A stretch of DNA of 64,000 nt from Candidatus Levyibacteriota bacterium. Lineage in GTDB: Bacteria > Patescibacteriota > Microgenomatia > Levybacterales > UBA12049. The notes below the pieces were generated by a model, which was not told where the DNA came from, did no database searches, and saw nothing but the letters and a program-made list of their open reading frames with translations. The translations under genes and the position numbers were made by a program. The stretch is from contig JACOXT010000004.1 in NCBI GenBank assembly GCA_016182235.1, positions 28,537-92,536 on the forward strand, read 5' to 3'. Of this stretch, positions 3,068-57,570 are shown in pieces. The first letter of the stretch is position 1. Each line of letters starts with the position of its first letter.

Positions 3068-3625
3068 ATGTCAGTAATAAGTCAAGCTATCCATCTGTAT
3101 ATACTTTATTATTCCCATATGCATATGGAAAATAAATCTGACTGGTCATCAAAAGAATCATTAAAGACTTTATCTACGCAAGCAAGAAATGAGGTACAAA
3201 AAATAACAGAAGCTCTTGTCCCGATAGATAGAAAAGTCGACAAGAAATCACCCCTTAATGAAAGAGCTAGGCAAAATTTAGGGTTCTTAAATGAATTATT
3301 AAATAAAGCGCCATTTTTACGAGAATATCTCACGCGTACAGGTAAGCAGATTATATTATCTAAAGCCTTCAATCCTTGGACTATTATTCCTATGCCGGAT
3401 ATAGCAATAGCCGACAGAACTTTAAGTAATAATGTAGGCTTTGATTCTCAAGGAGTTGTGATGTCATTCTTTAGTGATGCTGGATACAGGAAAAGAGTTC
3501 CATTATCAATTGGTTGGCTTGATACCTATTTTGAGACAGGGCATGCTGGAGCGTTGAGTCTTAAAAAGTTTGCAGACACAAGCAGAGAATCTTTGCTTAA
3601 AAAAATAGTTGCAGGAATTAAATAA
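3068..3625 (+). CDS. Hypothetical protein (orphan cassette ORF)
   Basis: A 185-aa ORF with no motif I recognise, bracketed by repeat copies A and B. The true start may be an internal Met (MHMENK...). Confidence 0.4.
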   Translation: MSVISQAIHLYILYYSHMHMENKSDWSSKESLKTLSTQARNEVQKITEALVPIDRKVDKKSPLNERARQNLGFLNELLNKAPFLREYLTRTGKQIILSKAFNPWTIIPMPDIAIADRTLSNNVGFDSQGVVMSFFSDAGYRKRVPLSIGWLDTYFETGHAGALSLKKFADTSRESLLKKIVAGIK

Positions 3626-25549: not shown

Positions 25550-27172
25550 TTAACGAAACATGCGTTTGAGTACTCCTTGTATTCCTTCAGCCTTAGTAGG
25601 AGAAGGCAATTTAGATTTATAGGCAACTATTGTCCCTACAGTTTCCCTACCTATTCCAATCGCACCTCCGACTGGTGCAAAAGCAGATCCGGTCTCAACC
25701 TTTGGAGCCTTGAGCATAGCTTTGAGCATGTTGACGACATTCGGCGTCATAAGAATAATGCCAAGCCCAATTAAAGCTCCGATATGATCTTCGTTGGCGC
25801 GGGCTCCAATAAGAGGAGGAACGAACAAGGTATTTTCCGGAAATCCGCCAAAAGCTGCCATAAATACTTTTCCAAGTAAAAACATGGCAATTACAGCAGG
25901 AAATGCGGCGAGATTTGCGATCAAATCTCGGAACCATCCTCCAACATTTATCGGACTTCCAGGAATTAATCCGCCAATAATCCAAAATGGTGCTAAGATA
26001 ACATCAATTAATATATGAACATAAGCAAAAAGAAGAGTAAACCAAAGTCTAAAAAGAGCAATTAAAAGTGCAATTGAGATTATTATAAAAGCAAGAAATC
26101 CAACAAACGTACCTAGTACTACGTGAAGCATTTTGAATAGTATATCTGCAACTGCATTTGTTGCTACATTTTCTATATTGGTAATCCAATTAAGAGGGTT
26201 CCACCATGTGCCTCCTTCGCCTGCACCAGGAAGAGCCACACCAACAACTACTTTAGACACAAATGTAGAAAAACTATTTAAAAAAGGGTCATAAAAATTT
26301 GCAAGAACTTCACTAATTGCTAGAGAAGGTTCTTCTATAAGCCTCCACATTCCACCATAAGCATTTCCTCCTCCTGCGCCAACTTCTGCTGCTGCTGAGA
26401 AAGGATTAGTTTTTTGTGAAAGTTGCGTAGGAAGACTTTTGTCTAATCCAGCGGAATCAACAATAAGATTACCAATTACATGAGTTGATACATACATCAT
26501 GTCTATCAAAAACCCCGCTATAGCATAGGAAAAAGTTACAAGAAGTATGCCGATTATAATTTTGGGTATCTGGTTTTGGATAGACATTACAGTTCTAGGA
26601 TCAATTTTTACTCTAAGCATAATTGCGAGTCCTATAACAACAAATACCAAAACAAAGAAAAGATAAACGATATTTCTAAATCCTTCCCACACCCTTAGAA
26701 GTGGTTTAAGTCCTTCAAACCCAGTTCCTGTTTGAGCATAAGCTATTTTTGAAATACCGAAATTCTGCGCCAGATATTGAAAATAGTCGCCGGTACGAAG
26801 AGGGGGAGTATAAAGAGAGGCTATCAAATTGTTCATTCCTCCAATTGCTCCTCCAATCTCTCCTTTTTCCAAATCCCCTTTTGGCAAAAAACCAATTTTT
26901 CCTGTTTTCGGATCAGCTCCAAGGCAGGTGCCTTTGGGATTTGTAGGATCAATGCCTGAAATCTGGCAGGAAAGCGCGCTTGCTACCTCAATCATCACAG
27001 TCTGAGTCCAGTTATGTAAGTTATTTGGAACTTCGGGGTTGGTATTGGGAGGTGGAGGATTTATTCGGGGAAGCTCTTGAGCATTGACTGAAGTAGGAAG
27101 TAGGAAGTATGAAGTAAGAAGTAAGAGAGCAGAGAAAATGAAAACAAAAAGGAGTCGGGCAGGAATTTTCAT
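25550..27172 (-). CDS. VirB6/TrbL-like polytopic membrane protein
   Basis: 540 aa with a signal peptide and then at least 6 TM helices. The size and topology match T4SS channel subunits found next to VirB4 in Gram-positive/CPR loci. The assignment rests on context and topology only. Confidence 0.5.
   Translation of the reverse strand: MKIPARLLFVFIFSALLLLTSYFLLPTSVNAQELPRINPPPPNTNPEVPNNLHNWTQTVMIEVASALSCQISGIDPTNPKGTCLGADPKTGKIGFLPKGDLEKGEIGGAIGGMNNLIASLYTPPLRTGDYFQYLAQNFGISKIAYAQTGTGFEGLKPLLRVWEGFRNIVYLFFVLVFVVIGLAIMLRVKIDPRTVMSIQNQIPKIIIGILLVTFSYAIAGFLIDMMYVSTHVIGNLIVDSAGLDKSLPTQLSQKTNPFSAAAEVGAGGGNAYGGMWRLIEEPSLAISEVLANFYDPFLNSFSTFVSKVVVGVALPGAGEGGTWWNPLNWITNIENVATNAVADILFKMLHVVLGTFVGFLAFIIISIALLIALFRLWFTLLFAYVHILIDVILAPFWIIGGLIPGSPINVGGWFRDLIANLAAFPAVIAMFLLGKVFMAAFGGFPENTLFVPPLIGARANEDHIGALIGLGIILMTPNVVNMLKAMLKAPKVETGSAFAPVGGAIGIGRETVGTIVAYKSKLPSPTKAEGIQGVLKRMFR
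27090..27124. repeat. Heptamer array GAAGTAG x5 inside the VirB6-like signal-peptide region
   Basis: The units are GAAGTAG GAAGTAG GAAGTAT GAAGTAA GAAGTAA. On the minus strand they are translated as LLLTSYFLLPTS. Confidence 0.85.
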
Positions 27173-27525: not shown

Positions 27526-27526
27526 G

Positions 27527-27613
27527 CGGTGAGGGAGGGATTCGGACCCTCGATAGTCTTACGACTATGCACGCTCTCCAAGCGTGTCGATTCAACCGCT
27601 CTCGCACCTCACC
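27527..27613 (-). tRNA. tRNA-Ser(GGA)
   Basis: The acceptor is GGTGAGG/CCTCACC and the anticodon stem-loop is CACGC-TTGGAGA-GCGTG. It has a long variable arm and the T-loop GGTCCGAATCC. CCA is not encoded. Confidence 0.85.
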
Positions 27614-28052
27614 TTATTATTTTTTTGGCTTCTTGCCAAACTTTTTTGTCCGATGGGTAAGTCAGTCTTTTTTCAACCACATCTATTGGCAGCCATTCAA
27701 CATTTTCCATCTCCAGATCATGCTTACTTATATCGCCAGAAACATATTTCATTAGAAAATAATACACTTTTTTCTTGATTGTCTCATTCTGAAATTTAAA
27801 CCAATATTCTACCGGAGTTAGAGCCTTAATAATTTTCGCATCAACTCCTGTTTCTTCTCTGACTTCCCTAAGTGCTGCTTCCTCTTTTGTTTCTCTTCTT
27901 GATTCCTGATTCCTAATTCCTGATTCCTTCTTATCGATTAATCCTTTTGGAAAAACCCATCCATGATGTTGAGAGTGCTGCGCAACCAAAATAAATGTCT
28001 GGCCACTTTCTTTTTTATAAACTACTCCTCCAGCTGAAAATTGAAATTTCAT
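27609..28052 (-). CDS. NUDIX hydrolase
   Basis: The Nudix box is split by an insert: FPKGLIDKKE-[SGIRNQESRR]-ETKEEAALREVREETG. The stop codon overlaps the tRNA-Ser(GGA) 5' end. Confidence 0.8.
   Translation of the reverse strand: MKFQFSAGGVVYKKESGQTFILVAQHSQHHGWVFPKGLIDKKESGIRNQESRRETKEEAALREVREETGVDAKIIKALTPVEYWFKFQNETIKKKVYYFLMKYVSGDISKHDLEMENVEWLPIDVVEKRLTYPSDKKVWQEAKKIIR
27899..27926. repeat. Heptamer array TGATTCC x4 inside the NUDIX gene
   Basis: The units are TGATTCC TGATTCC TAATTCC TGATTCC. Confidence 0.85.
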
Positions 28053-28054
28053 AG

Positions 28055-28129
28055 TGTCCCCGGCGGGAGTTGAACCCGCAAATCTTCAGGTTCGGAACCT
28101 GACGCTCTATCCAATTGAACTACGAGGAC
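28055..28129 (-). tRNA. tRNA-Arg(CCG)
   Basis: GTCCTCGTAGTTCAATTGGATAGAGCGTCAGGTTCCGAACCTGAAGATTTGCGGGTTCAACTCCCGCCGGGGACA. The anticodon loop is TTCCGAA. Confidence 0.85.
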
Positions 28130-28136
28130 TCCAATG

Positions 28137-28222
28137 CGGAGAGAGTGAGATTCGAACTCACGGTCGCCTAAGGCGACAGCGGTTTTCGAAACCGCCGCAC
28201 TCGTCCACTATGCGATCTCTCC
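28137..28222 (-). tRNA. tRNA-Ser(CGA)
   Basis: The acceptor is GGAGAGA/TCTCTCC and the anticodon loop is TTCGAAA. It has a long variable arm and the T-arm GTGAGTTCGAATCTCAC. Confidence 0.85.
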
Positions 28223-28241
28223 CATTTTCGACTTTCTTTGG

Positions 28242-28314
28242 TGTGCCCGGTGGGAGTTGAACCCGCAATCGCTGGGTCCGCAACCCAGTGCTCTATCCAT
28301 TAAGCTACGGGCAC
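28242..28314 (-). tRNA. tRNA-Arg(GCG), with a C-A mismatch in the T stem
   Basis: GTGCCCGTAGCTTAATGGATAGAGCACTGGGTTGCGGACCCAGCGATTGCGGGTTCAACTCCCACCGGGCACA. The anticodon loop is TTGCGGA. Confidence 0.7.
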
Positions 28315-28315
28315 A

Positions 28316-28432
28316 GAGAGTAGAAAACAGAAAGTAAAAAGCTGAAGGTAGATTATTGGAAATGTTTAACTCCATCCTCTAGCTTCTATCATCAAAATAC
28401 TATCTTCTACCTTCCATCTTCCACCGTCTATT
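28316..28432. repeat. Heptamer-array hairpin without cargo (6 purine-rich units, 12-nt spacer, 9 pyrimidine-rich units)
   Basis: The left arm is GAGAGTA GAAAACA GAAAGTA AAAAGCT GAAGGTA GATTATT (28316-28357). The right arm is CTCCATC CTCTAGC TTCTATC ATCAAAA TACTATC TTCTACC TTCCATC TTCCACC GTCTATT (28370-28432). The right arm closely matches the reverse complement of 21584-21646. Confidence 0.85.
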
Positions 28433-28469
28433 TTATCCTATTGCAGATTATGAAGCAAATTTGACTAGA

Positions 28470-29096
28470 TTAACTTGTCTTTTCCAGGGGGAAATTGCGG
28501 GATAGCCAATCGCCGGATTTCTCCATGAATGTTGGTTTTATATATTCCCTATACGGAAGATAGGGGAGTAAGGCTGTCTTAATATGTTCTCGATCTACAT
28601 TCCCAAGCGTCAATGTTAATTCGCCGGGAATAAATGAATGAGTTCGTATATGAACAACATCTACTCCCTCTCTTTTTTTAAAGTAGAAGTCATATAATTC
28701 CTGCCAGAGGAAAAAATGATCCTCTATTGTTAGTCCTTCTGTACTTATTCTATAGCGGAAATTTGAAGGCGGAACCGTATTTAAGGCAAAAGCGACAAAC
28801 ACTAAAGACGCAACAACAAGCATCAAGAGGTATTGAGAAAATAGAAAAAGAATAATTTCAATAAGAAGCATTATTAGAATACTTGTTAAATAATATTGAC
28901 TGCCTCTTTTTCTAAAAGGTCTCCCGGGAGCACTCCACTCAAGTAGTGTTTTAATCTCATGTAGGTTATCGTCATGATGAATATTTTTAGTTTGCTGAGG
29001 ATCATTTTTGTCAACTTGAGGCTCAGAAAGCTCGAGAGGCTCTTTGGGGAGATCCAAGGGCTCTTTTGGAAGAAAAGGTTGTTCTTGAGCAGCCAT
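28470..29096 (-). CDS. Hypothetical 2-TM membrane protein (PH-like C-terminal domain)
   Basis: 208 aa, with an N-terminal repeated PKEPL(D/E)L, a central TM hairpin and a soluble C-domain. Confidence 0.5.
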   Translation of the reverse strand: MAAQEQPFLPKEPLDLPKEPLELSEPQVDKNDPQQTKNIHHDDNLHEIKTLLEWSAPGRPFRKRGSQYYLTSILIMLLIEIILFLFSQYLLMLVVASLVFVAFALNTVPPSNFRYRISTEGLTIEDHFFLWQELYDFYFKKREGVDVVHIRTHSFIPGELTLTLGNVDREHIKTALLPYLPYREYIKPTFMEKSGDWLSRNFPLEKTS

Positions 29097-29164
29097 ACAT
29101 TTATAGTATAGCAGTATTTAGTATTAGTCAAGATAAGAGAATGATGATATAATAAGTTTGTCTG

Positions 29165-29254
29165 GGAGGAGTCGCATAGCTTGGTCAATTGCGAGGGTTT
29201 GCTAAACCCTTGAGCAATAAAATGCTCGCGTGGGTTCGAATCCCACCTCCTCCG
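29165..29254 (+). tRNA. tRNA-Ser(GCU)
   Basis: The acceptor is GGAGGAG/CTCCTCC and the anticodon loop is TTGCTAA. It has a long variable arm and the T-arm GTGGGTTCGAATCCCAC. Confidence 0.85.
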
Positions 29255-29277
29255 CTTCACCCCGCTAAGCGGGGTAG

Positions 29278-29364
29278 GGAGAGGTCGCATAGTGGCCGAG
29301 TGCGGATGTCTTGAAAACATCTAAGATAGTAATATCTTCGCGAGTTCGAATCTCGCCCTCTCCG
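29278..29364 (+). tRNA. tRNA-Ser(UGA)
   Basis: The acceptor is GGAGAGG/CCTCTCC and the anticodon stem-loop is GATGT-CTTGAAA-ACATC. It has a long variable arm and the T-arm GCGAGTTCGAATCTCGC. Confidence 0.85.
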
Positions 29365-29390
29365 CCCTCAATTTCTGCTAAACTGATTCC

Positions 29391-31690: not shown

Positions 31691-32048
31691 GGGGATGAAC
31701 TGATTCGACGAGAATGCACTTTAAAAAACAGCAAGCCGACATTGATTGAAAGTCGTAAAACTCAATCAAAATATAAATGCTAACGATCAAAATCGTTATG
31801 CGTTCGCTTACGCCTAATAACGTTTAGGGAACTGTTTATAGAGTCTTTTCTCAATGGGACTTTATAAGCATAAATACAGTTGAGAAATAGTAAGGAAAGT
31901 TGGTTTTTGTCCTTATCGAATTTATAAACCTTGGTGTTATTGATTCTTGTTGATTAGAAAAAAATAGCGCGACTCAAAATAATCAACTAAGCTTGTAGAA
32001 GTTTTTAATGTAAATTCTTGGACTCCGGTTCATTGCCGGACATCTCCA
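31691..32048 (+). ncRNA. ssrA: tmRNA (SsrA)
   Basis: The 5' end is GGGGATGAACTGATTCGACG. The 3' end has a tRNA-like T-arm (TCCGGTTCATTGCCGGA) and acceptor CATCTCC-A, with a G3-U pair. The tag ORF at 31779-31817 is GCT AAC GAT CAA AAT CGT TAT GCG TTC GCT TAC GCC TAA TAA, giving ANDQNRYAFAYA. Confidence 0.9.
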
Positions 32049-32052
32049 CACA

Positions 32053-48509: not shown

Positions 48510-49616
48510 ATGAATCTGTCAACAATAGAAAAAGTTAATGTTTCCGGTAAAAGGGTTTTTGTGAGAGCGGATTTGGATGTTCCTCTTTCCGAGACACGAG
48601 ATTCGCAACACGAGACACGAAAAATTGAGGATGAGACGAGGTTGAGAGCTGTGATGCCGACAATTGAGTATCTTCTGGGGCATAGAGCAAAGGTTATTGT
48701 TGGAGGACATTTGGGGAGACCGGAAGGATTTGATAAGAGTTTAAGCCTTGAGCCAGTCGCGAAATGGTTAAGTATTAAGTATAAAGTATTAAGTATAAAG
48801 TATGGAAAACGCGGGGAATTTGACGGGTGGGAAATAACTCCAGATCTTTTCATTCTGGAGAACTTAAGATTTTATAAAGGCGAGGAGGCCAATGATCTTA
48901 ATTTTGCAAAAAAACTGTCAAGCTTGGCAGACGTTTATGTTAACGACGCGTTTGCGATGTCGCATAGAAATCATGCCTCAATTGTCGGGATAACAAAATT
49001 TCTGCCTCATTATGCTGGTTTTCATTTGGCAAAAGAAATAGAAATGTTAGGTAAAGCTATGGATAATCCAAAGAGACCGCTTGTTGTAATTATAGGAGGC
49101 AAAAAAATTGAAACTAAGCTTCCGTTAGTTCATAGGATGCATGAAATTGCCGACTATGTGCTTGTTGGGGGAAAAATTGCCCAAGAATCCAAAGTTCTTC
49201 TGAAAGAACAGCACTCAAAATTAACCGGAAAGAAATCAGTGCTTTTAGTTGCAGATTCCAACAGTGACAAGTCAGACATAACAGAACAAGATGCTGAAAA
49301 TTTTTTGCAAATCATTAATACAGCGCGTACTGTTATTTGGAATGGAAGTATGGGGATAATAAGTGAAAAGCGAAAAGTGAAAAGCGAAAAGAATGATACA
49401 GAGAGGGGAACGCGCTTGATCGCTAAGGGCATTATGGAGAGCGGCGCTTATTCTGTGGTTGGCGGAGGAGATACGGTTGAATTTTTAAATAAACTGGGAA
49501 TTTTAGATAAATTTTCTTTTACCTCAACAGGCGGAGGAGCAATGCTAGCGTTTTTAAGTGGTGAAAAACTTCCAGGCATCGAAGCCCTGTTAAATAACGG
49601 GCTATATCACGCTTAA
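48510..49616 (+). CDS. pgk: Phosphoglycerate kinase, with three in-frame heptamer-array inserts
   Basis: Motifs are VRADLDVPL, LENLRFYKGEE, FAMSHRNHAS, GGKKIETKL, WNGSMG and GGGD(T). Inserts lie at 48591-48618, 48769-48803 and 49361-49388. Confidence 0.9.
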   Translation: MNLSTIEKVNVSGKRVFVRADLDVPLSETRDSQHETRKIEDETRLRAVMPTIEYLLGHRAKVIVGGHLGRPEGFDKSLSLEPVAKWLSIKYKVLSIKYGKRGEFDGWEITPDLFILENLRFYKGEEANDLNFAKKLSSLADVYVNDAFAMSHRNHASIVGITKFLPHYAGFHLAKEIEMLGKAMDNPKRPLVVIIGGKKIETKLPLVHRMHEIADYVLVGGKIAQESKVLLKEQHSKLTGKKSVLLVADSNSDKSDITEQDAENFLQIINTARTVIWNGSMGIISEKRKVKSEKNDTERGTRLIAKGIMESGAYSVVGGGDTVEFLNKLGILDKFSFTSTGGGAMLAFLSGEKLPGIEALLNNGLYHA

Positions 49617-52124: not shown

Positions 52125-54824
52125 TTAATAGCCAAAGACTTTACCCAGGGAGTTATTCCAGAGTAGTTCTAATAAGCTAATTGATGTTGAGACTCCTTGA
52201 GTTCCAGAAGGTGTCGGATAGGAATAAGATTCGGAAGGTGTACCATAGGAAGGAGTGCCGTATTCTGGTGTCCCGTAAGATGGAGTTCCATAACTTGGGG
52301 TTCCATAGCTTTCAGAAGGAGTGCCGTAGGATGGCGTACCATAAGTTGGAGTTCCATATGTTGGTGAGGGATAAGAGTAGCTGGTTCCTGGCGTTGGATA
52401 GGCATACCCTGTAGATGGAGAGGGATAACTAGTATCAGAGGGCGTTGGATAGTAATAGGTGTTTGGCGTTGGGTAATAGTATCCGCTTCCGGGTGTCGGG
52501 TAACCGTAAACCGGGCTTTGATCGCTTCCTCCTGGTGTTGGGTAACCGTATGCTCCGCCGGGTGTTGGGTAGTAATACGGAGTTTGGTATACAGTACTTG
52601 GTGTTGGATAATTTGATGTTGGCGAAGTATATCCACTACCTGGTGTGTAATACGGGCTGGTATATGTTCCACCGGGCGTGTAGTAGGAAGGAGAATAGTA
52701 AGAAGGCGTTAAGTAGTTTGGAGTTATGTAAGGCGTGTAATAGCTTGGGCTTGTATACGTTGATCCAGGAGGAGGTGTGTAATAAGTAGGCGATGAATAA
52801 GGGGTGTAGTAGGAAGGAGTTGGATAAAAGCCAGGTGTGTAATATGAAGGGGTAGGATAGCTTGCCGGCGAGTAATAGCTAGGAGACGTATATGTTGATC
52901 CTGGAGGAGGAGTGTTGTAGGAAGGAGAGGTATAAGCGATAGGGGATGTGTATGTTGGAGGCGTTGGGTATGTGCCTGGAGTATAGTAATTCGGTGTTGT
53001 ATAGCGAGGTGGCGGCGTATAGTATGAAGGCGTTGTATAGTTTGATCCTACAGGGGGAGTATAGTAAGTTGGAGTTGTATAAGTTGGAGGAGTGAAATAA
53101 ACAGGTGTAGTATAGCCGCCCCCGGTGTATGGCGTGTAATACTGAGGTGTTGTATATGGTGGGGGTGTTGAATAGGTCGGAGTAGTATAGTTGGAAGATA
53201 TACCACCTTGACCGGGAGTATAATAGTAAGGTGTTGAATATTGTGGAGGTGTGTAATAATAAGGAGTAGTATAGCCGCTTCCTACCGGAGGAGTATAATA
53301 AGTTGGACTTGCATAGCTTGGTGTTGGATACTCACCGGTTGGCGTAGTATAGTTGCCCCAAGGAGTATAGTAATTGGGGGTTGGGTAATTTGATCCCGAT
53401 GGAGGCGTTTGATAAGAAGGTGTTGAATACATGCCTGGCGTGTAGTATTGAGGCGTTGTATAAGTCGATCCTGTTGGCGGGGTATAATAAATGGGTGTTG
53501 TATAAAAACTGGTTGTTGGCGGAGTCGCATAAGCTATATCACTGGGCGGTGTATAATATGTTCCGGGAATATAAGATTCGGGGGGTCTTGGAGAATTTGG
53601 ACTAAAGCCTTCGCATCCTCCCGGATTGTCCGAACAATAATCATAACATGCTGCAGGAGATGTGCATCCACCCATTGACTCAATAGGCTCATGCGTTACT
53701 TGGTCTCCGGGGGTGTAGTAAAGATATGGATTGTAACTGTCGGTTGGTCTGGAAGTAGTAGCATCAAAGCCAGGGCAGACGCTTGCCCCATTCACAAGAT
53801 TATCCTTACAATAGTCATAACATTCTCCAGGAGTTGAACAATTTCCCATCTCCGGCCGAGATTCAAAATGAGCAGATAGAATATCTGTTGCGATACCTAT
53901 TGGTGGTTGATCTTGACAAGAAGAACCATTCCAGAACTTGTCAGCTCCTACGCAATTAATCGCTTCTTGTGTTTGAGTTGGTAGGGTGCAAACACCGCCC
54001 GGGCCGTGTTGCTCGCCATTTGGACAAACTAGAGAAGCATAAACTCCGTTTGAGCCGGGCGAATAACTTCGGCAATCTTGTGGGTTTTGATCGCAGTATG
54101 TTCTGCAGCTTTCTTCACTAGTGCATCCGCCAGGACCGCTAAACGATCCGCCATCTGTTGGGGGATAGGTGTTGCAAAGAGAGAAATTAGCTGGATCGGA
54201 ACAGAAGGCAGAACATGTCTCAGCACTCTGACAGCCCCCTGGTCCTTCGGTGGTATTACCTCCCAATAACCCGACTTGACTAGCAAAATCTGAACAAGAT
54301 TGGCTGTTAGCTGGATTGTCACAGAAGGTTGCACAAGAATCTAATGAGTCACAACCCAATACATCTTGGGCGATTTCCAGAAATTCAGGCTTGTCTGGAT
54401 TTTCTGTATATCCACCTGTGATTTCATTTCTTTTCGCCCAAGCATCGCAAGCTTCATGGTTTTCCGTCTTAGAACAGAAATCCAAACATGTATCTTTGGA
54501 GTCACAACCGAACTCGTCTTTTGCGCTTTCTAAAAGCTCACTGTCATATGTGACTGGATTATCTTTATAAAAACCATGCTCTTTGGCAAACGTACTGCAA
54601 CTGTTATAGTTGACAGGGTCTTCACAATAGTTGGTGCAAGTATCAATATCGTTGCATCCGCCTAGTTCTTCAATAGGAAACGAAAATTCGGAGGAAGGAT
54701 CTGGAGAAACCTCGGGTGAGGGAGTTTGGGAGAAAACATTAGTTGCTACGAAAAACAACAAGGCTAAAGTAATGCTTGTTATAGTCAAAAATTTAATTAA
54801 ATTAGGCCGTAAAATAGTTGTCAT
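52125..54824 (-). CDS. Secreted protein: about 7 four-Cys modules followed by a roughly 480-aa Tyr/Thr/Pro-rich repeat region
   Basis: It has an N-terminal signal/anchor. The modules fit GGCxSxExCxxYCxDPxNxxxC. A long YYTP / TPSYGTP low-complexity tract follows. Confidence 0.6.
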   Translation of the reverse strand: MTTILRPNLIKFLTITSITLALLFFVATNVFSQTPSPEVSPDPSSEFSFPIEELGGCNDIDTCTNYCEDPVNYNSCSTFAKEHGFYKDNPVTYDSELLESAKDEFGCDSKDTCLDFCSKTENHEACDAWAKRNEITGGYTENPDKPEFLEIAQDVLGCDSLDSCATFCDNPANSQSCSDFASQVGLLGGNTTEGPGGCQSAETCSAFCSDPANFSLCNTYPPTDGGSFSGPGGCTSEESCRTYCDQNPQDCRSYSPGSNGVYASLVCPNGEQHGPGGVCTLPTQTQEAINCVGADKFWNGSSCQDQPPIGIATDILSAHFESRPEMGNCSTPGECYDYCKDNLVNGASVCPGFDATTSRPTDSYNPYLYYTPGDQVTHEPIESMGGCTSPAACYDYCSDNPGGCEGFSPNSPRPPESYIPGTYYTPPSDIAYATPPTTSFYTTPIYYTPPTGSTYTTPQYYTPGMYSTPSYQTPPSGSNYPTPNYYTPWGNYTTPTGEYPTPSYASPTYYTPPVGSGYTTPYYYTPPQYSTPYYYTPGQGGISSNYTTPTYSTPPPYTTPQYYTPYTGGGYTTPVYFTPPTYTTPTYYTPPVGSNYTTPSYYTPPPRYTTPNYYTPGTYPTPPTYTSPIAYTSPSYNTPPPGSTYTSPSYYSPASYPTPSYYTPGFYPTPSYYTPYSSPTYYTPPPGSTYTSPSYYTPYITPNYLTPSYYSPSYYTPGGTYTSPYYTPGSGYTSPTSNYPTPSTVYQTPYYYPTPGGAYGYPTPGGSDQSPVYGYPTPGSGYYYPTPNTYYYPTPSDTSYPSPSTGYAYPTPGTSYSYPSPTYGTPTYGTPSYGTPSESYGTPSYGTPSYGTPEYGTPSYGTPSESYSYPTPSGTQGVSTSISLLELLWNNSLGKVFGY

Positions 54825-56416: not shown

Positions 56417-57499
56417 ATGATTCGGGTTGCGATTAATGGATATGGAAGGATAGGCAGAGTTGCTCACAGAGTAATTTTGGAAAAGCATTCCTCAGAAATT
56501 GATGTTGTTGCTATAAATGCCGGTTCTTCTACTGATATAAAAGGATGGATGTACCTGCTTCGGTATGATTCTTCGTATGGAATACTTCAGAATCATACCT
56601 TGAATTTCCAATTTCCAATTTCCAATTTCCAATCAAATCAAAATAATCAATTTTCAAATGTTCAAAATAGAGATGACTATATTGGCTCACTTATCATTGA
56701 CAGCAAAAAGATTCCGGTATTTTCGCAGAAGGACCCGAGTCTTTTGCCTTGGCGAGATTTAAATGTCGACGTAGTCATTGAGTCAACCGGGCATTTTACC
56801 ACAGAAGAAAAGCTTAAGACTCATATTACAGCTGGAGCGAAAAAGGTACTTTTGTCAGCTCCGGCAAAAGGTGGAGAAGTTTCGACTTATGTCCTCTCGG
56901 TCAATGATAAGGATTATAAAGGAGAGTCTCTTATAAATAATGCCTCATGTACAACAAATTGTATTGCGCCAGTTGCTAAGATAATGGTTGCTAATTTTGG
57001 AGTGGAGAAGGCAATGATGACGACAATTCATGGCTATACATCTGACCAAAGACTCCAAGACGGGGGGCATAAAGACTACAGGCGTGCGCGGGCGGCAGGA
57101 GAAAATATTGTTCCAACATCAACCGGAGCAACAATCGCGGCAAGTGAAGGAGTTCCGGAGCTTAAGGGAATATTTTCTGGATTGGCAATTAGAGTTCCGG
57201 TTCCGGTTGGGTCACTTTCGGATTTTACCTTTCTTCTTAAAAAAAATACAACTGTTGAAGAGATAAATGAAGTAATGAGAAGCGAAGCTCAAAATCCTAC
57301 ATATAATGGTATATTAGAAGTAACAGAAGATCCAATTGTTTCTTCAGATATAATCGGTAACTCTCACTCCTCAATCGTTGATTTGTCTCTTACTCAAGTT
57401 GTCGGCGGAAACATGGCTAAAGTTATTGCCTGGTATGACAACGAGTATGGATATGCAAATAGATTGGTGGAAGAAGTAGTTATGGTTGGAAAATCATAG
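56417..57499 (+). CDS. gap: Glyceraldehyde-3-phosphate dehydrogenase, with an in-frame heptamer-array insert
   Basis: Motifs are INGYGRIGR, the catalytic SCTTNC, WYDNEYGY. An insert of about 25 aa (LNFQFPISNFQSNQNNQFSNVQN) follows LLRYDSSYG. Confidence 0.9.
   Translation: MIRVAINGYGRIGRVAHRVILEKHSSEIDVVAINAGSSTDIKGWMYLLRYDSSYGILQNHTLNFQFPISNFQSNQNNQFSNVQNRDDYIGSLIIDSKKIPVFSQKDPSLLPWRDLNVDVVIESTGHFTTEEKLKTHITAGAKKVLLSAPAKGGEVSTYVLSVNDKDYKGESLINNASCTTNCIAPVAKIMVANFGVEKAMMTTIHGYTSDQRLQDGGHKDYRRARAAGENIVPTSTGATIAASEGVPELKGIFSGLAIRVPVPVGSLSDFTFLLKKNTTVEEINEVMRSEAQNPTYNGILEVTEDPIVSSDIIGNSHSSIVDLSLTQVVGGNMAKVIAWYDNEYGYANRLVEEVVMVGKS
56604..56668. repeat. Heptamer array ATTTCCA x4, then degenerate (A/T)TCAAAT-like units, inside gap
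   Basis: ATTTCCA is exact four times (56604-56631). The 7-nt periodicity then continues in degenerate form to about 56668. Confidence 0.85.
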
Positions 57500-57500
57500 G

Positions 57501-57570
57501 TGTCATGCCGAACTAGTTTCGGCATCTAGTTTTTTCAGGAATAAGATCCTGAAACAAGTTCAGGATGACA
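57501..57570. repeat. Nested palindromic element (TGTCAT ... ATGACA) between gap and the kinase-like gene; includes a terminator-like hairpin
   Basis: The inner hairpin is ATGCCGAA-CTAGT-TTCGGCAT (57505-57525), followed by a T6 run. A second hairpin is TCAGG...CCTGA. The outer arms are TGTCAT (57501-57506) and ATGACA (57565-57570). Confidence 0.7.

Follow-up and report, generated by a model that had tools for sequence, protein, structure and literature searches.

Long non-triplet repeats are frameshift hazards, yet perfect arrays of 7-nt units sit in two energy-pathway enzymes of a reduced genome of the candidate phyla radiation (CPR). How does such an array come to lie in a conserved enzyme, and what keeps it there? 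The question was followed in a 64,000-nt stretch of DNA from a Candidatus Levyibacteriota bacterium (contig JACOXT010000004.1, positions 28,537 to 92,536 of the forward strand), which is called the window below and to which coordinates refer unless a locus is named. The type I GAPDH gene of the window (56417–57499, + strand, 360 aa) carries four exact ATTTCCA units in its reading frame, followed by an A/T-rich tail. The array and the tail are likely a coding heptanucleotide microsatellite and adjoining older repeat-derived sequence at the tip of a GAPDH hairpin, forming a loop that was born by slippage and is tolerated as a passenger. The sample consists of the window and about 85 kb of related loci.

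The array and its host gene

Tandem Repeats Finder (TRF) placed the array at 56603–56633, with a period of 7, 4.4 copies of AATTTCC and 100% match. Read as ATTTCCA, the four exact units named in the first-pass annotation lie at 56604–56631, in frame, and encode N63–Q72 (NFQFPISNFQ); the GAPDH open reading frame (ORF) is intact. Among exact tandem arrays with at least 3 copies and a period of 5–15 nt, it is the sole case in the window. The adjoining tail is 37 nt long (56632–56668), encodes S73–N84 (SNQNNQFSNVQN) and is weakly periodic. The same array is present in independent assemblies of different samples (orthologous loci L163/L164 and L167), which rules out an assembly artefact. Judged on sequence alone, a programmed-frameshift slippery site was also ruled out, as the ORF runs uninterrupted and the protein continues past the array in one frame.

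The host gene is best explained, from its sequence and its predicted structure, as a functional type I GAPDH. Its protein is 100% identical to a protein named type I GAPDH in a metagenome-assembled genome (MAG) of Candidatus Levybacteria, and matches Pfam Gp_dh_N (4e-27, 94.8 bits, cut-off 31.7) and Gp_dh_C (8e-54, 182 bits, cut-off 24.4). The best solved-structure match is T. maritima 1hdg (5e-100). NGYGRIGR at residues 7–14 and ASCTTNC at residues 176–182 are both invariant in 64 orthologues. The AlphaFold2 (AF2) model has a predicted local distance difference test (pLDDT) score of 82, and its Foldseek template-modelling score to 1hdg is 0.84 by query and 0.91 by target.

The array lies within extra sequence. 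The alignment to 1hdg is interrupted between query residues 54 and 90, so that query residues 55–89 (35 aa) stand for chain residues 52–62 (11 aa), a net gain of 24 aa. Against L082, an insert-free, Levybacteria-like relative that is 72% identical and keeps the canonical length (HTLELK-DD-AFVID, without array), the net gain is 23 aa, close to the 25 aa that had been annotated. Of 1.84 billion representatives, the best 150 mostly align in two stretches, with the second starting from query residues ~90–93, and the Saccharibacteria and Daviesbacteria GAPDH genes among the matches listed have about 330–336 codons. GAPDHs of other phyla are without a segment of comparable length, and these comparisons support the reading of the segment as a lineage-specific insert. 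The limits of the insert had been drawn somewhat differently in the first-pass annotation. The segment does follow YDSSYG; however, ILQNHT comes first and then LNFQ, and the family pattern is back at about R85–D87 (RDDYIGSLIID), before VFSQKDP.

By alignment to solved structures, the insert falls on a β-hairpin of the NAD-binding domain, the domain in which a surface loop had been expected. The AF2 model places it at the tip of this hairpin: the first array residues (L62–Q65) are modelled as the canonical first strand, residues 66–79 as coil with pLDDT below 50 at residues 69–76, and the canonical strands appear again at 88–94 and 97–102. In GAPDH tetramers, this hairpin would sit on the outside of the NAD-binding domain.

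A second peculiarity of the protein is found at residues 34–40 (NAGSSTD, 56516–56536). INAGSSTD replaces the canonical IND(L/P)xD of the cofactor pocket, with two additional residues and a serine at the position of T. maritima Asp32. N34, A35, G36, S38, T39 and D40 are invariant and S37 is nearly so in 64 Levybacteria sequences, and several NADP-using GAPDHs are among the top structural matches of the window protein. INAGSSTD and these matches hint at an altered cofactor preference.

Array units and loop lengths among orthologues

Orthologues were compared as the 120 closest proteins (75–87% identity) and as the DNA of 12 close orthologues from exact-protein look-ups. Scans of genomic and metagenomic contigs with the GAPDH protein returned mostly distant GAPDHs, with at least about 12 Levybacteria-like loci among the matches listed. 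All 120 proteins have extra sequence at the GAPDH hairpin. Four units were found in 10 of the 12 orthologue DNAs, and five to six imperfect units in the other two (L081 and L085), while L082 has no array.

The unit itself changes between lineages. AATTTCC is present in four exact copies in the window, L163 and L167, in four copies with 1–3 mismatches in L161, L166 and L168, and in L162 in four copies with an 18-nt GC-rich insert between the second and the third. L171 holds (AATTTCA AATTTCC) x2 and L169 (AATTTCA AATCTCA) x2. Four exact copies of AAATCCG are found in L165 and L170, and of AAGTTCA in L173. Within one genome the units of the GAPDH array are alike, between genomes they differ, and exact 14-nt higher-order repeats occur in the arrays of L169, L171 and L085. 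Such a pattern is what concerted evolution or repeated re-expansion would leave behind. The array peptide varies accordingly by lineage (NFQFPISNFQ, IKSEIRNPKSE or KFKVQSSKL), and many of the 120 loops have the look of translated heptamers, with ISNFQFP from (ATTTCCA)3, EIRNPKS from (GAAATCC)3, KSQISNL from (AAATCTC)3 and KFKVQSS from (AAGTTCA)3. When Patescibacteria proteins are annotated, peptides of the kind of ISNFQFP, EIRNPKS and KSQISNL are to be read as translated heptamers rather than motifs. When array type was set against phylogeny, by a neighbour-joining tree and by core distances within and between types, the core was star-like or saturated (all pairs at about 0.16–0.18) and held little phylogenetic signal. 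The nearest neighbour had the same array type in 39 of 120 cases, versus about 28 expected by chance.

The reading frame restricts which copy numbers can be kept. When the window array was edited in silico to 2, 3, 5 or 6 units, stops arose at codons 72–120, and with 1 or 7 units the frame stayed open. Because only changes of ±3 units keep the frame, loop length would move in 7-aa steps. Consistently, the loops from YDxxYG to IGSLIID (n = 120) have modal lengths of 18–19, 25–26 and 31–33 aa; modulo 7, 58 of them fall in class 5 (19, 26 and 33, the canonical 12 + 7k) and 31 in class 4. Runs of at least three identical residues were seen at lag 7 in 32 of the 120 loops, at lag 6 in 2 and at lag 8 in none. 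One protein (P0112/L172), with HTLELK-SQNSNFK-DS against HTLELK-DD of L082, is longer by exactly 7 aa. These steps of 7 residues stand in the protein loop as a fossil record of the arrays.

The same frame dependence could serve a phase-variation (contingency) switch, by which gain or loss of one unit turns GAPDH on or off. The array resembles the simple sequence repeats (SSRs) of contingency loci in being a perfect non-triplet repeat early in an ORF, where one-unit changes shift the frame and ±1 or 2 units end the protein prematurely at codons 72–120, and coding SSRs are the classic device of phase variation (PMC3315296). It differs from them in its hosts, since GAPDH and phosphoglycerate kinase (PGK) are central housekeeping enzymes, with GAPDH being essential, and not surface or accessory genes. 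Four copies are short for an efficient switch. Each of the 12 orthologue arrays keeps the reading frame, with 4 units present in 10, and no on/off variation in copy number was seen among these orthologues, although they were retrieved through intact proteins. A switch of this kind is considered extremely unlikely.

Age and upkeep of the loop sequence

The first-pass annotation had read the array as caught while degenerating into ordinary coding sequence. The nucleotide comparison supports this reading only in part. The window GAPDH gene shares 75–77% nucleotide identity with those of L163 and L167, and third-position identity is 0.50–0.52. Against L163, the longest exact run in the gene is a 58-nt block at the array (56579–56636, comprising ILQNHTL, the array and 5 nt), and the next longest run is 20 nt. 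Exact runs at the array reach 56 nt against L167, 44 nt against L166 and 34 nt between L165 and L170, versus typically 15–30 nt elsewhere. Third-position identity is 1.0 inside the array versus about 0.5 gene-wide. When the observed identities per codon position were simulated (20,000 trials), the longest run had a mean of 19 nt and a maximum of 50 nt, and the expected number of 58-nt runs was 1.4e-5. The perfect block is, judged by these comparisons, the most conserved DNA in the GAPDH gene and not young. L165, of the AAATCCG lineage, is equally near the window overall (0.770), yet 3 of 7 positions of every unit differ. One-way decay is also at odds with L165, L170 and L173, which hold four equally perfect copies of other units; perfect but different units would instead point to in-place homogenisation, re-expansion or constraint.

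Constraint at the nucleic-acid level deserves to be weighed here. The array might be kept as a DNA or mRNA site read in a 7-nt register, or as unstructured mRNA that affects translation or decay, with the peptide as a by-product. The 58-, 56- and 44-nt runs and the complete third-position identity argue for it, and copy number stays at 4 while unit and peptide change. In addition, 198 of 200 shuffles fold better than the array plus tail (z = +2.15). However, the unit is wholly different between lineages and between arrays of the same genome, which speaks against a sequence-specific reader, and L082 manages without an array altogether. Homogenisation, together with the reading of each unit position in three codon phases, can slow substitution without such a function. 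RNA-family and tRNA scans gave nothing that overlaps the GAPDH gene (no Rfam family in the region), and the scan for internal promoters and terminators at the array gave a single weak promoter-like match (9 of 12, 56619–56647). Selection of this kind is judged unlikely. The same low weight is given to its broader form, in which Levybacteria, perhaps with other Microgenomates, would actively conserve or regenerate arrays of about four units at fixed sites of housekeeping genes (GAPDH and PGK) at the DNA or RNA level. Such maintenance could work through a dedicated repeat-writing or homogenising process or through a reader of 7-nt register, with peptides as by-products. It is compatible with the data, in which array length and perfection are kept across saturated synonymous divergence while the unit is free to change.

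The tail is a different matter. About five decayed (A/T)TCAAAT-like units had been counted in it, a count that the present analysis supports weakly. Four TCAAAT-like hexamers were found, at 56633, 56647, 56654 and 56662 (spacing 14, 7 and 8), and TRF reports period-14 repeats running through the homologous tail of orthologue L168. In contrast, lag-7 autocorrelation of the window tail alone was 0.47 versus 0.37 in shuffles, which is not significant (p = 0.17); at lags 8 and 9, p was about 0.05. The tail has its homologue in N[PS]NDQxSNVQN/VKT, a segment common to the AATTTCC and AAATCCG lineages, and is absent from the 31–32-aa loop class (L081 and L085), where only five or six imperfect heptamers occur. 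Since the segment is common to lineages whose perfect arrays differ, the tail would be older than these arrays. It probably represents older, decayed repeat sequence.

This shared tail, conserved as N[PS]NDQxSNVQNR[DE]DY across lineages with different arrays, also bears on whether selection acts on the loop peptide, as an appendage on the GAPDH surface that is specific to the lineage and serves, for example, protein-protein contacts or moonlighting, with the repeat merely its origin. That all 120 orthologues keep some insert at the hairpin, that loop length classes are maintained, and that L62–Q65 are modelled as the canonical first strand fit such a role. The array residues, however, shift from the aromatic and hydrophobic NFQFPISNFQ to the charged IKSEIRNPKSE between lineages, model confidence over the loop is low, 15 of the 120 orthologues hold an unrelated peptide in this loop, and L082 and other phyla manage without the insert. 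A selected appendage is accordingly rated as rather improbable. The peptide would more plausibly be a tolerated passenger, because its sequence varies between lineages and the modelled confidence is low.

The unrelated peptide in these 15 orthologues comes from a palindromic element that is translated in frame in the GAPDH loop, as it is also in L001 and L084. Its peptides are of the VILxSE...DSS..PQND or CHPE... types (for example VILNAREGS..PQNDN and CHPERNEGS), and the L001 insert (about 3170–3230) folds end to end as a single 57-nt hairpin (VILNAREGSGDSSASPQNDN). Other inserts are nested in the array or tail. GC-rich pieces of 18–32 nt were found in L162 (about 1700–1720), L166 (about 620–650) and L170 (about 735–770), with peptides LLGGQA, SPRKADQPLAE and SPLRQGFAGQA, respectively, and that of L166 forms two tight hairpins (z = -4.1). 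L093, of another CPR lineage (GAPDH locus 1501–2544), carries a short-period GTEGSEGAEGTEGK repeat (GTEG/SEGA) at the same hairpin, which suggests recurrent permissiveness to repeat expansion. The GAPDH hairpin is evidently a highly permissive site. Just after the stop of the window GAPDH gene, two convergent terminator-like hairpins lie at 57505–57566 (ATGCCGAAC..GTTTCGGCAT and ATCCTGAAC..GTTTCAGGAT), and they appear to be of the same type as the palindromic element in the loop.

With such elements at hand, the window insert itself might be a small mobile or palindromic element, similar to miniature inverted-repeat transposable elements or Rickettsia palindromic elements (RPEs), that integrated in frame instead of arising by slippage in situ. 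The L001-type elements, the related-looking sequences downstream of the window gene and the nested inserts all lend something to it, and RPEs inserted in frame in housekeeping and metabolic genes of Rickettsia are a precedent (PMC10969869). RPEs are alike in that selfish or neutral DNA adds a tolerated segment to metabolic enzymes whose function is kept; they are, however, dispersed palindromes of ~150 bp with conserved peptides, whereas the window insert is a non-palindromic, locus-unique tandem array. The window array plus tail lacks inverted repeats and shows unusually little structure (minimum free energy -1.3 kcal/mol, with the positive z given above). The two-unit 14-mer recurs in the window only as two 2-mismatch matches, no more than would arise by chance. 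Every array has its own unit, and exact 14-nt sub-repeats and 7-aa length steps suit slippage better. Because the insert is neither palindromic nor repeated elsewhere in the window, a mobile origin is ranked low and regarded as very unlikely.

Heptamer arrays across the window and the origin of the loop

Heptamer periodicity is not confined to GAPDH. When TRF arrays with scores of at least 38 were counted in the window and in 40 dinucleotide shuffles of it, 8 period-7 arrays were found in the window and 0 in the 40 shuffles. Period-14 arrays numbered 5 versus 0.33 and period-21 arrays 2 versus 0.05, and no array of this score was found in the window at periods 8, 10 or 13. Each array has its own unit, about ten in all (ATGATTA, TCTTAAA, TTCTACC, GAAGTAG, TTCCTGA, CGAGACA, TTAAGTA, AAGCGAA and AATTTCC among them), and the majority lie inside ORFs. 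Across related loci, 21 period-7 arrays were found in about 80 kb of Levybacteria-like sequence, about half of them being the GAPDH array, versus 18 in 744 kb of other loci. Over the window and the related loci, ORF arrays have 4.3–5.1 copies in 20 of 24 TRF rows (outliers 3.6, 3.7, 6.7 and 8.0), and the few intergenic arrays have 3.6–7.7.

A parallel is found in the PGK gene (48510–49616, + strand), which holds three heptamer arrays, all in frame. The first, imperfect CGAGACA at 48590–48620, lies at an insert of 8 aa (SETRDSQHETRK); the second, TTAAGTA at 48768–48803, is exact at period 14 and brings no net length gain; the third, AAG(C/T)GAA at 49361–49391, is also exact at period 14 and lies at an insert of 8 aa after WNGSMG. 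Both inserts were counted against solved PGKs. At the third site, other Levybacteria carry AAAATTA (L166) or ATAGCAA (L085), and L170, L002 and L083 have no array. L169 has an AAGTCAA x4.6 array in an upstream ORF annotated as PGK, whose place within PGK was not aligned. The suggestion that such arrays are a source of new loops in core enzymes is borne out by the GAPDH length classes in 7-aa steps and by the +8-aa inserts at two of the three PGK arrays.

The slippage-born passenger loop can be pictured as follows. The Levybacteria lineage would be prone, genome-wide, to tandem duplication of 7 nt, for which replication slippage is the simplest cause. Within an essential ORF, the frame would survive only if the net change were a multiple of three units (21 nt, 7 aa), so that the smallest surviving expansion would run from about 1.4 to about 4.4 copies and give the protein an added period of 7 residues. 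Several such steps of +21 nt, along with decay, may have raised the loop from canonical length to +23 aa. Slippage or gene conversion inside the array would keep its units identical, whereas the unit would change from one lineage to the next by concerted evolution, and the loop peptide would be a tolerated, largely disordered passenger and not a selected motif. The array has the hallmarks of a microsatellite, namely head-to-tail identity beyond chance (4.4 exact copies, with 0 equivalents in 40 shuffles) and whole-unit or higher-order variation among relatives (14-nt sub-repeats, arrays of 5–6 units and 7-aa steps).

Several observations weigh against this reading. None of the 120 proteins showed an in-frame form of the perfect array with 1 or 7 units, and out-of-frame alleles could not show up among orthologues that were found via intact proteins. 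Some intergenic arrays also stand at 4.3–4.6 copies; the frame constraint is therefore not the sole limit on length. The array and 25 nt upstream are identical in lineages with near-saturated third positions, whereas neutral concerted evolution predicts drift near the mutation rate. This identity needs an extra assumption, such as peptide selection in three phases, nucleotide-level constraint or recent recombination of loop cassettes. Finally, the evidence comes from one 64-kb window and about 85 kb of related loci.

Comparable repeats are known from other organisms. Heptameric SSRs are over-represented in bacteria, for which slippage linked to the polymerase footprint has been hypothesised (PMC4692102); the heptamer observation of Mrazek et al. 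(2007) is taken here in the form in which that paper cites it. Examples are GGGAATC and GGGGAYT in Xanthomonas and Nostoc and the tandem heptanucleotides of the cyanobacterium Calothrix PCC 7601. The Levybacteria arrays share with them the excess of 7-nt units over neighbouring periods within one lineage and the variation of length and sequence between close relatives. In contrast to those SSRs, which are mostly intergenic with one or few units per genome, each Levybacteria array has its own A/T-rich unit, copy number stays near 4, and most arrays lie in ORFs, including those of essential enzymes. TAACTGA direct repeats of Beggiatoaceae, Cyanobacteria and Bacteroidetes (PMC4679880) are also heptamers, occur in two to six copies and are occasionally translated as 7-residue peptide repeats. 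They share, however, one conserved unit, which mostly lies shortly before start codons and for which a role in regulation has been proposed, and their in-ORF cases lie at protein termini, whereas the Levybacteria arrays lie in internal loops of core enzymes. One or few recurring, mainly intergenic units, as in short tandemly repeated repetitive (STRR) or TAACTGA sequences, are not what was found here, with about ten units and a majority in ORFs.

Tandem repeats of Borgs create amino-acid tandem repeats and disordered regions (PMC9879509). They are likewise perfect in ORFs, lineage-specific, A-rich and locus-unique in their units, and give new predicted disordered segments. Their in-ORF units are all divisible by three, whereas the Levybacteria unit of 7 nt keeps the frame by unit number, with 7 aa per 3 units. 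In prokaryotic genomes and their coding regions, selection generally disfavours long SSRs (PMC3315296). A literature search found no link of heptamer or tandem repeats with Patescibacteria, Microgenomates or Levybacteria. The phenomenon in Levybacteria is real and regular and seems to be undescribed so far, and the heptamer arrays in its enzymes are most likely a mutational by-product. Unusual among loop-generating coding microsatellites are the non-triplet unit in essential enzymes, the four-unit rule and the lineage-specific replacement of the unit. The locus offers a concrete, datable case of mutational bias making new segments in conserved enzymes, and the rule of +3 units is simple and testable genome-wide.

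Further repeats were noted in passing. TTCCTGA x4.7 (27896–27928) is in frame in a NUDIX hydrolase ORF (27609–28052, - strand) with the peptide ESGIRNQES, and GAAGTAG x4.9 (27090–27123) supplies some of the hydrophobic N-terminal segment in a 540-aa protein without Pfam match (25550–27172, - strand). Repeats of period 14 and period 7 at 28313–28352 and 28402–28423, respectively, lie between tRNA genes; six tRNAs (Ser x4, Arg x2) and a transfer-messenger RNA (tag ANDQNRYAFAYA) are clustered at 27526–29366 and 31691–32049. Two longer sets were found at or just past the 3' end of a GAPDH match, ATTCCTG x13.4 in a Bacteroidetes MAG (L040, 3996–4089) and GTAGAAA x6.7 with TTCTATC x8 in a Levybacteria genome (L165, 2591–2708). 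An 899-aa ORF (52125–54824, - strand) combines an N-terminal part rich in Cys with a very long low-complexity region of Tyr, Thr and Pro (YYTPP-like repeats), and coincides with the peak GC content (0.45) and GC skew (0.36) of the window.

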